DNA of 61,888 bases from Nematocida ausubeli (Eukaryota), in contig NW_026515636.1 in the NCBI RefSeq assembly GCF_000738915.1, positions 707,175 through 769,062 of the forward strand. Reading direction: 5' to 3'. The translations under genes and the position numbers were made by a program. Below are positions 26,235-39,286 of this stretch, one piece after another (the stretch's first letter is position 1; each line of letters begins with the position of its first letter). The notes under the pieces are model-generated. The model did no database searches. It saw only the letters and a list, made by a program, of their open reading frames with translations, and was not told where the DNA came from.

Positions 26235-26547
26235 TGACAAGACTTATGGCAGATTGTCAGAACTATTTCCACTTTGTCAAGACTTAATCCACATTTACTT
26301 GAAAGTTACAAGACTTTTTCCATAATGACAAGACTTATTATGCGAGGACAAGACTTAATCCACAATGACAAAACTTATTATGCGAGGACATGACTTAATC
26401 CACATATACATTACTTATTACTCACTGTCACAATTTAATCCACTTATACATAACTTATTCCATCTATGGCAAGACTTAATCCACCTTTACTTGAAAACTA
26501 CAAGACTTAATCCACCCCTCCCTAAAACTGACAAGACTTAATCCACA
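26235..26547 (+). repeat. Phased array A1 of the CAAGACTTAATCCAC motif (14 copies)
   Basis: Starts at 26238, 258, 278, 309, 329, 349, 369, 389, 409, 429, 449, 470, 501, 532. Confidence 0.92.
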
Positions 26548-26721
26548 CATAAAATCACCCAATATTTATACCCCAATACAATTTCTTCTACAATAATGCA
26601 CAATACCCCATAATAACCACACATACGCAGTCACACCCAAAGAAAGGACATATCCCCATATAATTCTACCCAAATACTATCCCAAGTATCTGCAAGGCCA
26701 CTCCCCACCCGTAATTAATGT

Positions 26722-26794
26722 GCCGACTTAGCTCAGTTGGGAGAGCGTTAGACTGAAGATCTAAAGGTCCTTGGTTCGAACCCGAGAGCCGGCA
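26722..26794 (+). tRNA. tRNA-Phe(GAA)
   Basis: 73-nt cloverleaf: D arm GCTC/GAGC, anticodon arm TTAGA-CTGAAGA-TCTAA, T loop TTCGAAC; oligo-T terminator follows. Confidence 0.96.
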
Positions 26795-26810
26795 TCTTTT
26801 TGTTTTTTCA

Positions 26811-26911
26811 CACAAGACTTAATACACTTTGTTCAGAACTTATGACACTTATTACAGACTTAATACACTTTTACCATAACTTATGGCACTTATTACAAGA
26901 CTTAATCCCCT
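26811..26911 (+). repeat. Phased array A2 (5 copies) downstream of the tRNA
   Basis: ACTT cores at 26817, 838, 858, 879, 900. Confidence 0.85.
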
Positions 26912-26939
26912 CTAATAATAACATAATTAAATACTTCCA

Positions 26940-27120
26940 ATACTCCCCCCTTATATCTCACTAATAATTAAATACTTTTAAGATAGTGCCCTTATATCTC
27001 TCTATAAAATAATAACCCAATACTCCCCCCCTTATATCCCACTAATAAAATAATAACCCAAGGTAGTACCCTTACACCCCACTCTCCCCAAGGGGGTACC
27101 CTTATATCCCTCTATAAACC
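26940..27120 (+). repeat. CCCTTATATCYC degenerate repeat (5 copies)
   Basis: ctta cores at 26950, 26991, 27031, 27071, 27101. Confidence 0.75.
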
Positions 27121-27179
27121 CCACTAATACACGTATATAAAATAGACTAACTTTGAATTTATTCCGAATATCACCGCAA

Positions 27180-27833
27180 TCACAAGGCACTCGCTGCCTT
27201 CTGAATGTATTCCACTAAGGGTCCCTTCTTCTTCAGCTCAATTGCCCCAATGCCCATGGGTAATAAGGCTCCTTCTCCCTTGAGTCTTTCAAATTCAGTT
27301 CGCTTAAACTCAGTGAACCCGTGCATTTCATTCACCTGAATGATCTGCTTCCCAGCGAACTTGTGCATGGCTCGTCTTAATCCTTCTCTGACTCTTTCTT
27401 CAGTGCCTTCTCTGCTTCTAACGGAAATTAGTGTCTGTCCTATTTCCACTCTGGCCGTACGTCCATTTGGTTTTCCAAATGACCCTCTCATTCCTGTCTG
27501 CAGTCTATCTGCACCTGCACATGACAACATCTTATTTATTCTTACGACGTGGTGAGTGTGAACCTTAAGCCTGAAGTGGAATGCATCTTTATCTAAGTGC
27601 GTTGATAAGTACTTATTCAATGCAATACGAGATGCTTCTAAGGCTTCTGCTGAGATTTGTTCTCTTTCCATTGAAATTAGATTAGTGCAAAGAGGCAGTT
27701 CTAATACTGTTGCCTTTCTCTTGCCTGTGTCGTATTTGGATACTTTTGAGTCTGGGACTCCCCTGCAGAACCTTGACTTAGGGTATGGCTTATTCTTAAT
27801 GTATCTGTAACATCTTCCTGGTCTTCTTCCCAT
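27180..27833 (-). CDS. RPL10: 60S ribosomal protein L10 (uL16)
   Basis: [53 protein letters not shown]; no intron; CCCC motif 4 nt before the ATG. Confidence 0.98.
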
Positions 27834-27883
27834 TGCAGGGGAGAAAAAAATGAAAAAATATATATTACATATTTATAGAATAT

Positions 27884-36701: not shown

Positions 36702-36753
36702 TTCTGGCCATATTTGGATGCAGTGACTTCGAATTATATTTTGCACGGAAAAA

Positions 36754-37402
36754 TGACAAGACTTAATACGCACTTTACAATAAATTATAAAAAAGATCAA
36801 GACTTATGCTACTTTTCTAAAATATTGCAAGACTTAATCCACCCTAACCCAGAGCTTACAAGACTTTTTCCACTTTGTCAAGACTTATGCTACTTTTCTA
36901 AAATATGGTAAGACTTATGCCACATATATTTATGTATTACAACTTTGTGCAAGACTTAATCCACTTTTTGCAGAACTTATTACATGAGAACAGAACTTAT
37001 GCCACTCAGACAGGACTTATAGCGCACTGACAGAACTTAATCCACTTCACCAAGACTTATGCCACTTCATCCCAAGAATGACAAGACTTTTTCCACATAA
37101 CCCGAATAGTCAGACATAAATAGACCAATTATAAGTGACCAATAAAATATAATAGACAGAACTTATTACACTATGTGTACTAAGTCTTGCACAAAGTGGA
37201 AAAAGTCTTGTCAATTCCTCAATAAGGTGGAAAAAGTCTTGTCAGTTTCGGGTTAGCATGGATTAAGTCTTGTCACCGAGTAATAAATTCTGTCATTTTA
37301 TATTTAAAAATAATAAGTCTTGTCACTCTGCCATAAGTCCTGTCCAAGTACCATAAGTCCTGTCAATATGGATTAATTTCTGTCAAAAAATAATAAGTCT
37401 TG
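36754..37402. repeat. Phased inverted array C (forward 36757-37171, reverse 37175-37402)
   Basis: Forward spacings 41,30,31,20,30,41,21,20,20,20,20,31 then a longer gap; reverse spacings 21,31,31,20,30,20,20,20,20. Confidence 0.92.
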
Positions 37403-37432
37403 TTTTCCCTTTATTCATGTCTCTAACTGAAT

Positions 37433-37798
37433 TTAAACAGATTCTTTAGGCTTCATTTCATCGATTATCTCAGAATATGCAGTCTCAAGGGGTCCCTGTA
37501 CAGATTCCACTGCTTCCCCTTCGTTTTCCATTACTTTTGGCTCACTTTGCAATAAGTCTTGGCCTGTCTTGTATAAATTTAAGAAATGATCAGCACTGTC
37601 GAAGTATTTCTTCTCGGATGCCATCTGCCGCATTTGCAGATATTTTATTCCTGGAAGGGGCTGTGAGTCTACTCCTTCGTGGTTTTGATTGTTTTCTGGT
37701 AAATCTGGCTGTGATTTGGTTATCTGGCTATTTACCGTTATTTTTTGTTTTTGTTTTAATACTTTTTGTTTTATTTTCTTAAGCTTCTTTAGCAGCAT
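37433..37798 (-). CDS. Endosulfine/ARPP19 (Igo1)-like protein
   Basis: KYLQMRQMASEKKYFDSADHFL matches the endosulfine KYFDS[GA]D phospho-motif; first ATG at 37798. Confidence 0.8.
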   Translation of the reverse strand: MLLKKLKKIKQKVLKQKQKITVNSQITKSQPDLPENNQNHEGVDSQPLPGIKYLQMRQMASEKKYFDSADHFLNLYKTGQDLLQSEPKVMENEGEAVESVQGPLETAYSEIIDEMKPKESV

Positions 37799-37834
37799 TT
37801 TTTTGCCCCTTACAAAAATTTTTATTAAGAATAT

Positions 37835-38447
37835 TGCAAGACTTTTGATACATAGTGTAATAACTCTTGGAAAATATGACAGGACTTTTGATATATGGTG
37901 TAATAAGTTATGGCATATGGTGAGGTGGACTAAGTCTTGTAAATTATTGGGTAAGGTGGAAAAAGTAATGATAAAAGTGGAAAAGGTCTTGCAAATCATT
38001 GGGTGATTATTTATTATTATTGGATGAGGTGGCAAAAGTCATGGGCCAATAGGAAAAAGTCTTGCACGGAGTGGAAAAAGTCTTGTCAGTTTTAGACTGA
38101 AGTGGAAAAAGTAGTGGATAAGTGGATTAAGTCATGTCAATTTATAAATAAGATAGATTAAGTCTTGTTACTATGACATAAGTCTTGTCAATTTATCGAT
38201 AAGGTGGATTAAGTCCTACCCCAAATTCCATTACTTAATCCACTAGTGCCATAAGTCTTGACATATATTACACAATTTAATCCACAGTGTCATAAATCCT
38301 GTCATATAAGACTAATTCTAACATAAATCCATTACTTTTTTCGCCCACTCCATAAGTCCTGCCAGTTCCACCATTAATTAATCCACAGTGCCATAAGTCT
38401 TATCCAAATTTACAAGACTTTTTCCACTATATCCATAAGTTATGCAA
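37835..38447. repeat. Phased array D (mostly reverse copies plus head-to-head pairs)
   Basis: Reverse copies at 37925, 956, 977, 38029, 050, 071, 102, 122, 153, 173, 204 (spacings 31,21,52,21,21,31,20,31,20,31). Confidence 0.9.
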
Positions 38448-38454
38448 TATTTTT

Positions 38455-39015
38455 ATGACTTTAATAAGTATAATAAGGCAGTTAGGGGTACATGTAACAG
38501 AGACAAAGGAAGTAATTGGGTACATTCTAAGTGCAAATAGAAGGGAATGGAAGTTCATTGCAAATGAATATGCAACTATCCATGATCTATGCACAGAATT
38601 ACAGTCACAGACTAATATTCCTGTTGTATCTTATACTAATATGCGGATTATAAATATAAAGCAAGAAATACTGCTGCAGCACAAAGAATTATTAAAAATA
38701 ATAATAGAAATAATAGTAGTGCAGCCAAGACTTATTACGCAGGCGGAAAAAGTAATGGAAGATAAGACAGAACATATTACACATAGTGTAAAAAGTAATG
38801 AAGAAAAAAAGGGGGAAGTGCAGCTATTTAGGATTGGAAGGAAGAAAAGGACTTGTAAGTTGTGCAGAACTGGGATTGGTGAATATAAAAGGAAGAAAGA
38901 CCCACTTATATCTACATATGAGAACATTCTGTGTGAAATGTGCTATAAAGGGTTTCACTGGGACATAAAAGGAGAAAGAAAGTACGACTATTTTAAATAT
39001 GAAAAAAAGGAATAA
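38455..39015 (+). CDS. SNAPC3/SNAP50-like zinc-finger protein
   Basis: C-terminus RTCKLC..........DP......LCEMCYKGFHWDIKGERKYDYFKY follows the SNAP50 pattern CxxC...D...CxxC...HYD..G. Confidence 0.7.
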   Translation: MTLISIIRQLGVHVTETKEVIGYILSANRREWKFIANEYATIHDLCTELQSQTNIPVVSYTNMRIINIKQEILLQHKELLKIIIEIIVVQPRLITQAEKVMEDKTEHITHSVKSNEEKKGEVQLFRIGRKKRTCKLCRTGIGEYKRKKDPLISTYENILCEMCYKGFHWDIKGERKYDYFKYEKKE

Positions 39016-39286
39016 GACTTATGCCTTACTGGATTAAGTCTTGTAAATCTTGGCAGAACTTATGGCACTGGTGGAAATAATCTTGTAATTTTGGACAGAA
39101 CTTATGGCACTATGACAAGACTTAATCCACCCTGTGCAGAACTTAATCCACCTTATTGGGAAAATGACAAGACTTATGGCATGTATATTTATGTATTACA
39201 ACTTTGTACAGGACTTAATCCACCTTATCCAAAAAATAACAAGACTTAATCCACCCTATCCAAAAAATGACAGAACTTAATTCCCA
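39013..39286. repeat. Phased array E
   Basis: Forward copies at 39013, 054, 096, 116, 137, 168, 209, 240, 271 (spacings 41,42,20,21,31,41,31,31). Confidence 0.9.

Follow-up and report, generated by a model that had tools for sequence, protein, structure and literature searches.

A 61,888-nt stretch of the genome of Nematocida ausubeli, a microsporidian of nematodes (NCBI RefSeq assembly GCF_000738915.1, contig NW_026515636.1, positions 707,175 to 769,062 of the forward strand; hereafter the window, whose positions are used throughout unless another locus is named), carries about one hundred copies of a degenerate motif, X, which are gathered in two blocks, set at whole helical turns and embedded in a wider zone of a second motif, Y. 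The X arrays are probably protein-binding sites that selection keeps on one face of the helix. As to their role, the sequence suggests with about an even chance that the locus is a regional centromere that contains genes, similar in size to those of Pneumocystis but distinguished by its sequence motifs. Slightly short of even is the chance of a sequence-defined centromere of undescribed build, in which a gene-filled 8-kb core would be accompanied by two phased X blocks for a lineage-specific protein, under selection so intense that X sites entered genes, and by a 26-kb halo of Y. The data comprise this one 62-kb window, one distant locus (L001, a Nematocida-like metagenome locus) and protein records.

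X sites were called with an iterated position weight matrix (PWM) built from the window itself, at a threshold score of at least 11. The informative site spans 17–18 bp rather than the 15 bp given in the first-pass annotation, whose count of roughly 90–100 degenerate copies in two blocks proved accurate: the window holds 103 sites, of which 101 lie within 26,235–39,285 (58 on the plus strand and 43 on the minus strand, the latter a correction to that annotation), and the other two are weak strays at 7,696 and 39,360. Dinucleotide shuffles (30, in 500-bp tiles) yielded a mean of 2.6 sites and a maximum of 6, and the 15-mer with up to two mismatches occurs 38 times as compared to 0.13 expected, every time within the two blocks. 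Block A extends over 26.2–28.4 kb (about 40 sites) and block B over 36.8–39.3 kb (about 60 sites), while the 8.3 kb between them are devoid of X sites despite four intergenic regions of 0.5–1.4 kb. The sites are laid out as six intergenic arrays (14, 4, 22, 24, 22, and 11 sites), a triplet in a SNAPC3-like gene, and one site in a gene for 121 amino acids (aa):

26235..26546, plus strand: array A1, 14 X sites, all plus, between the start of the Wee1-type kinase gene and tRNA-Phe
26810..26910, plus strand: array A2, 4 X sites in the convergent interval from the tRNA-Phe 3' end to the RPL10 3' end
27884..28444, unstranded: array A3, 22 X sites, 10 plus then 12 minus, in the interval from the RPL10 start to the RRM gene end
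36754..37405, unstranded: array B1, 24 X sites, 14 plus then 10 minus, between the convergent NOC3 and 121-aa genes; contains two Y sites
37547..37564, minus strand: single X site inside the 121-aa gene
37834..38427, unstranded: array B2, 22 X sites in mixed orientation, between the divergent 121-aa and SNAPC3-like genes
38723..38803, unstranded: coding X sites (plus, minus, plus) and a weak fourth (score 10.3) in the SNAPC3-like coding sequence
39010..39285, unstranded: array B3, 11 X sites where the SNAPC3-like and 227-aa genes converge

Whole helical turns of about 10.2 bp account for 88 of the 93 distances between neighbouring sites. Among the 77 same-strand distances of at most 80 bp, 73 are in phase (20 bp, 30 times; 21 bp, 15 times; 30 bp, seven times; 31 bp, 14 times; 41 bp, five times; 52 and 60 bp, once each) and four are not (27, 34, 68, and 75 bp); within the range of 22–39 bp, 30 or 31 bp make up 21 of 23 distances. 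The spacings of 20/21, 30/31, 41/42, and 52 bp described in the first-pass annotation are thus largely borne out, except that no adjacent sites lie 42 bp apart. The best-fitting period is 10.16 bp (R 0.74 for 315 pairs, as compared to 0.72 at 10.3 bp and 0.64 at 10.5 bp). No 10-bp periodicity was found in 21 motif-free intergenic regions of the window, so that a general period of intergenic DNA was rejected as its source, and the excess at about 10 bp that had been predicted is present in X pairs and missing from these controls. The helical repeat of DNA is about 10.2 bp on a nucleosome and 10.5 bp in solution, and the period of the arrays would fit wrapped DNA better than free DNA.

The phase is held across strands as well. 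With position 9 taken as the dyad, the phase is shared by 15 of 16 opposite-strand neighbours, at 20–22 bp (mean 21.07, standard deviation 0.57, n = 15), while other dyad positions give standard deviations of 1.1–2.0; position 9 also has the top symmetry score, just ahead of position 8. A fixed spacing between opposite strands cannot be produced by head-to-tail slippage, which points away from a plain minisatellite. Furthermore, a weak negative correlation links the scores of neighbours at 19–22 bp (rho -0.28, p 0.03), and stronger sites flank the gaps of 30/31 bp (p 0.001), both of which are expected if close neighbours aid each other's binding. The protein reading X is probably roughly two-fold symmetric and cooperative along one face of the DNA, with neighbours two turns apart or separated by one extra turn. 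The extra turn as a copy of the right half of the site itself was considered and dropped, as such copies showed no excess over other sites (0.429 vs. 0.427).

Conservation within the motif is strongly position-specific. In a leave-one-out comparison, A5 and A8 are each found in 96 of 96 sites, T11 in 94 of 96 and C4 in 89 of 95, while positions 1, 2, 3, 6, 7, 13, and 15 carry the consensus base in just 53–63 % of sites; in total, the 101 sites represent 87 distinct 17-mers. Invariant bases next to freely changing ones argue against a selfish or neutral repeat that slippage and gene conversion would have spread, whether built of minisatellite units (20/21 and 30/31 bp) or of the subterminal repeats left by a decayed foldback transposon. 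Where a minisatellite would be head-to-tail, of one orientation and evenly drifted, the arrays contain 16 close orientation switches, 15 of them in phase, and sites on alternating strands even within coding sequence. Nor were the long colinear inverted repeats or the transposase of a foldback element or miniature inverted-repeat transposable element seen: the longest inverted arms in the locus are only 71–76 % complementary and composed of motif copies, no DNA-transposase domain occurs in the 34 open reading frames (ORFs) of the window, and the locus offered no definable element ends. When indels were simulated under neutrality at assumed rates, a mean of 46–83 in-phase distances remained, as compared to the 88 of 93 observed (p at most 0.003 in seven of eight settings).

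Several observations, on the other hand, are what a neutral repeat would leave behind. The arrays show local homogenisation and higher-order units of 40/41 bp, other intergenic tandem repeats are common, and X is missing from the distant relative L001 (see below). The linkers, which the first-pass annotation had described as unrelated filler, are in fact related: 14 linkers of 13 bp share 52 % pairwise identity (29 % when shuffled) and a loose common consensus, and segments were copied between arrays, for example, a 30-nt stretch at the strand switch of B1 that is 93 % identical to one near the switch of A3, and a 23-nt linker common to B1 and B3 (22 of 23 identical). The number of independent phase events is therefore smaller than the counts suggest (family-level p 0.002), and copying evidently spread the units, so that only the retention of particular copies calls for selection. 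With the evidence on both sides, a purely neutral origin appears improbable; rather, the arrays probably spread through local duplication and copying between arrays, with selection retaining the in-phase copies.

The three X sites within the SNAPC3-like reading frame, in plus, minus, plus order, occupy a protein loop that is short in most orthologues. In the protein of another strain (P0002), this loop is longer by 14 aa, corresponding to 42 bp and hence in phase, and back-translation permits four X sites there, the extra one 42 bp further on and encoded by different residues; in control proteins, only two scores of at least 19 were obtained in 3,870 residues. The loop (38723–38803) also bears unrelated insertions in the proteins P0041 and P0054 of other species, and thus tolerates indels. 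Together with the opposite-strand spacing, the position-specific conservation and the kept lengths, the coding sites and their 42-bp polymorphism support the earlier proposal that selection maintains binding sites on the same face of the helix.

The facing plus and minus arrays could instead act as a cruciform or as hairpins of DNA or RNA rather than as duplex binding sites, and B1 indeed folds as DNA at -80.5 kcal/mol (z -6.3, 20 shuffles). Such folding, however, follows from the orientation switch itself, arrays A1 and A2 have a single orientation, pairing requires neither a 10-bp phase nor invariant bases, and the arrays have no Rfam match, which makes this reading very improbable.

Beyond X, the locus is set apart by Y, a motif that was chosen after inspecting the data. 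The exact 8-mer TAACCCGA occurs 20 times in the window (0.5 expected), with 19 occurrences in 20–46 kb, 10 of them between the X blocks and 5 in coding sequence, and matches of at least 9/10 to ATAACCCGAA number 33 (shuffle mean 4.6, maximum 10). After collapsing, 28 of 30 Y sites fall in one span of 26.5 kb (p<1e-4):

20215..46855, unstranded: Y domain, 32 of the 33 matches (at least 9/10) to ATAACCCGAA, single or in head-to-tail pairs at 9–11 bp; 7 in coding sequence, with 0 coding matches outside the span
28445..36753, unstranded: inner interval, 8.3 kb, 7 genes, 0 X sites at a score of at least 11, 13 Y sites (at least 9/10); putatively kinetochore-bearing
26721..26796, plus strand: tRNA-Phe(GAA), within block A, the sole Rfam match of the window
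37,433–37,798: 121-aa gene, holding one X site

Around 18 exact Y sites, weaker copies occur at 9–11 bp in 9 of 108 positions as compared to 2 of 828 off phase, and the bromodomain gene likewise carries weaker copies, in stretches of low conservation. When 168 frequent 8-mers were ranked by clustering, the first ten places went to X words, two Y words and a single AT-rich one. The median of the exact Y 8-mers (31.9 kb) lies close to the midpoint of the X blocks (32.6–32.8 kb). Given this shared centre and the presence of Y in coding sequence, the X blocks can be read as parts of a larger whole, and the two blocks and the Y zone are best read as one domain that ignores gene layout. The 13-bp linkers were also considered as degenerate Y sites (one is a 9/10 match); this idea passed a letter shuffle and was rejected on a permuted-consensus control (p 0.08). 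To the right of block B, a 73-bp tandem repeat (39584–39745, 2.2 copies, 93 % alike) carries a 9/10 Y match in each copy.

The genes in and around the arrays encode a Wee1-type kinase, tRNA-Phe, RPL10, an RRM protein, a bromodomain protein, three unnamed proteins, a sybindin-like protein, NOC3, the 121-aa protein and the SNAPC3-like protein, with no evident common function among those flanked by arrays. This lack of a common theme argues against a cluster of transcription-factor sites, that is, an enhancer or silencer for local genes such as those for the Wee1 kinase or RPL10, with Y as an ordinary promoter element. Such a cluster would account for A1, A3, and B2, which lie upstream of genes, and for Y, which may resemble Myb-type Reb1/Tbf1 sites. 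Moreover, five candidate promoter elements are reported for N. parisii in the accessible part of PMC3514677, and X or Y may be among them. Against it stand A2, B1, and B3 between convergent 3' ends, the sites in coding sequence, and the absence of any Y match of at least 9/10 from the first 20 kb of the window, which hold 13 of the 34 examined ORFs; we regard it as unlikely.

Arrays in two orientations also bring replication origins to mind, either two sequence-defined origins or a single one with iteron-like initiator arrays. Phased binding arrays are known from plasmid iterons, parS/parC, the oriP of Epstein-Barr virus (a 30-bp family of repeats and a 21-bp dyad spacing), CENP-B boxes and the pairing-centre and rex motif clusters of C. 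elegans. These systems share with X many degenerate sites for one protein at fixed spacing, in the service of replication, segregation or chromosome architecture; they differ in that the present arrays occupy six gaps between genes of a eukaryotic chromosome and extend into genes, and no sequence identity is claimed. Intergenic GC skew on the plus strand does change sign across the locus (from -0.05/-0.03 on the left to +0.15/+0.17 on the right), but four-fold degenerate sites are G-richer on the plus strand on both sides and show no switch, leaving the skew inconsistent as a signal of an origin. In addition, about 100 sites in six intergenic regions and a 26-kb halo of a second motif far exceed what an origin needs, and origins thus have a low probability.

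GC content stands at 36.2 % within the core and 35.1 % within the Y zone, as compared to 39.7 % beyond the latter. In 1-kb windows, the bins between the blocks range from 31.6 to 38.4 % GC, and the lowest bin (27.7 %, 24–25 kb) lies outside the blocks; a very AT-rich intergenic stretch with degenerate 8–41-bp repeats and neither X nor Y is found at 24026–24700, left of the Wee1 gene. The window's lowest observed/expected CpG ratio (0.29; other 4-kb bins 0.36–0.59) is located at 36001–40000. The 10 genes of the X span (27180–39015) show a mean coding-strand A-over-T skew at four-fold sites of 0.42, as compared to 0.17 in the 24 others (p 0.005), while the corresponding skew of L001 orthologues ranges from -0.07 to 0.42.

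Among the options of the first-pass annotation, i. e., a centromere, an origin or a chromatin element, a centromere is favoured because Y ties both blocks into one domain and because three of the six intergenic arrays sit between convergent 3' ends. In this reading, a regional centromere with genes inside it would be seeded or bounded by the two X blocks, its kinetochore lying on them or in the interval between them, and Y would recruit a second factor across core and pericentromere. A small regional centromere in a compact genome would be expected to take such a form, a single domain of two tiers that is indifferent to genes and has a core of about 8 kb. Whatever speaks for protein binding and for a domain blind to genes applies equally to a chromosome-structure element with the same phased arrays that is not a centromere, for example, a pair of boundaries or loop anchors, a zone of SMC loading, a centre for homologue pairing or a tether to the nuclear envelope, and two blocks around a core would suit a loop. 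Sequence alone does not separate the two readings, and the preference for a centromere comes solely from the need of every chromosome for one, the fitting size of the core and the absence of any mapped centromere from the microsporidian literature as far as accessible; we consider another structure element unlikely.

A comparison with known centromeres places the locus outside the described types. In budding yeast, the point centromere is one element of about 125 bp with single protein sites, whereas 101 sites over 13 kb are present here. According to the accessible part of PMC10327204, Pneumocystis centromeres measure 4.8–8.0 kb, span active genes and mostly do not lie at synteny breaks. The likeness comprises a compact genome of an obligate parasite, a span of several genes and perhaps a slightly lower GC content, and the 8.3-kb core with 7 genes agrees with the size of that type (5–8 kb, several genes), assuming that the interval between the blocks is the core; however, the Pneumocystis centromeres were mapped by CENP-A and lack motifs or repeats, whereas here two strong motifs are the whole signal (PMC10327204, in part). 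Mucor circinelloides, an early-diverging fungus, has a centromere-specific motif to which an unknown protein is proposed to bind, but each core of about 0.9 kb holds a single 41-bp motif and lies within 15–75 kb of gene-free DNA rich in long interspersed nuclear elements (10.1101/706580, in part); the present locus has about 100 phased copies among and in genes, is gene-dense, and the sole retroelement match is a Ty3-type polyprotein 23 kb away. In Malassezia, a short motif is enriched in, though not exclusive to, a kinetochore region of 3–5 kb with transcribed ORFs, which is reminiscent of Y; that motif is AT-rich, however, and its core of less than 1 kb and 78 % AT lies at a GC minimum (PMC7025860, in part), whereas X is information-rich and phased, and the 1-kb bins between the blocks have at least 31.6 % GC, so that no such core exists here at 1-kb resolution. 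Each of these four types (point, Mucor, Malassezia and Pneumocystis), taken as defined, fails in a tested feature, and the locus belongs to none of them. Still, Pneumocystis shows that a small regional centromere may span genes without breaking synteny (PMC10327204, in part), and Mucor and Malassezia provide precedent for centromere-linked motifs (10.1101/706580 and PMC7025860, both in part), and by analogy the locus may work like a centromere of the Pneumocystis kind with added sequence marks.

For microsporidia themselves, the literature to 2026 reports, in the accessible parts of PMC10158259, PMC13174016, and PMC12449221, no experimentally located centromere, and epigenetic, holocentric and subtelomeric models are debated. 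In Encephalitozoon, no point-centromere motif was found and epigenetic subtelomeric centromeres were suggested (PMC10158259); in Microsporidia MB, methylated, retroelement-rich regions of 30–82 kb were proposed (PMC13174016); and a survey of eight species found none (PMC12449221). The assembly of N. parisii comprises seven contigs (PMC13745600). The same parts of these three sources report no motif arrays, and the accessible parts of 10.1101/2025.05.12.652816, PMC13745600, and PMC10393165 mention no centromeres (nor, in PMC10393165, motifs). No description of the present arrays was found in the accessible literature, PMC4704409 included, a coverage that lies outside subscription journals.

The gene order at the locus is old, judging from protein records and locus tags: it is the same around the arrays in other N. 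ausubeli strains, the genes for Wee1, NOC3, and the SNAPC3-like protein are 9 and 2 tags apart in both N. displodere and Nematocida sp. AWRm80, and the latter two are 2 apart in four further species. A search with RPL10 yielded 12 metagenome loci, of which only L001 (12,256 bp, 47.6 % GC, RPL10 74 % identical) is Nematocida-like, with ten genes from SNAPC3-like to RPL10 in the same order; the other 11 have 0–2 weak PWM hits each, and a two-site X pattern had no match in metagenome, viral and prokaryote collections. L001 spans the core as well as the A3, B1, and B2 intervals, while those of A1 and A2 fall outside it, since gene order changes after RPL10. At L001 9749–9871, orthologous to the site of A3, an unrelated 25-bp repeat (4.9 copies) lies off the 10-bp phase.

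Several points weigh against a selected, centromeric role. Conservation, which the first-pass annotation had named as a check, was not borne out in the syntenic interval of the distant relative: L001 contains 0 X sites at a score of at least 9, 0 TAACCCG and one 9/10 Y match, implying motifs that are young or fast-changing, or an element that has moved, and no X-compatible stretch scoring at least 19 is found in the 9 scored SNAPC3-like orthologues from other species. The mildest simulation setting does not reject neutrality (p 0.06), and 21 linkers form 4 single-linkage families. Neither a candidate binding protein nor a cognate gene near the arrays was found, RPL10 and a tRNA are located inside block A, and known gene-containing fungal centromeres lack motifs (PMC10327204, in part). 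The dip in GC at third codon positions (GC3) is weak, with 0.389 in 10 genes of the X span as compared to 0.449 in the 18 core genes that lie beyond it (p 0.023, rising to 0.26 when all 34 ORFs are included); six ORFs were left out of this 28-gene test (one retroelement, three large-family-like, one repetitive, one unassigned), and a post hoc boundary (p 1.6e-4) was dropped for the preset one. Finally, the case for a centromere draws on a single 62-kb window.

Further features of the window were noted in passing. A Ty3/gypsy-type polyprotein of 863 aa (72–2663) has reverse transcriptase, RNase H and integrase, with protease not matched; two neighbouring GATA zinc-finger genes lie on the same strand at 10573–11511; and three ORFs of about 940 aa (5544–8366, 43520–46330, 47180–50017) have no Pfam hits and a low GC3 (0.33–0.35), presumably resembling the large Nematocida gene family NemLGF1. 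An ORF of 1137 aa (58391–61804) contains internal repeats of 18/39/57/78 bp and likewise has no Pfam hit. The database protein cluster of the Wee1 gene (24729–26069) also contains 37-aa Serratia peptides as an artefact of clustering, and an atlas search with a 131-aa protein of the core was uninformative (top score 0.81). The stretch was found, whole or in part, in 20 sequencing runs from 6 studies, none of them RNA among those listed.

If the centromere reading is true, microsporidia would have their first located centromere, one that is both gene-filled and sequence-marked, and it would represent an independent step towards centromeres specified by sequence. It would furthermore supply baits for binding proteins and a part needed for stable episomes in microsporidia, which are hard to manipulate genetically. 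As the motif can be scanned for, the question of the centromere becomes testable within minutes on public assemblies, and at the bench in the C. elegans host. Should the locus prove to be another structural element, it would still represent an unusually clean case of selection for helical phase that rewrites both the intergenic and the coding DNA of a eukaryote.

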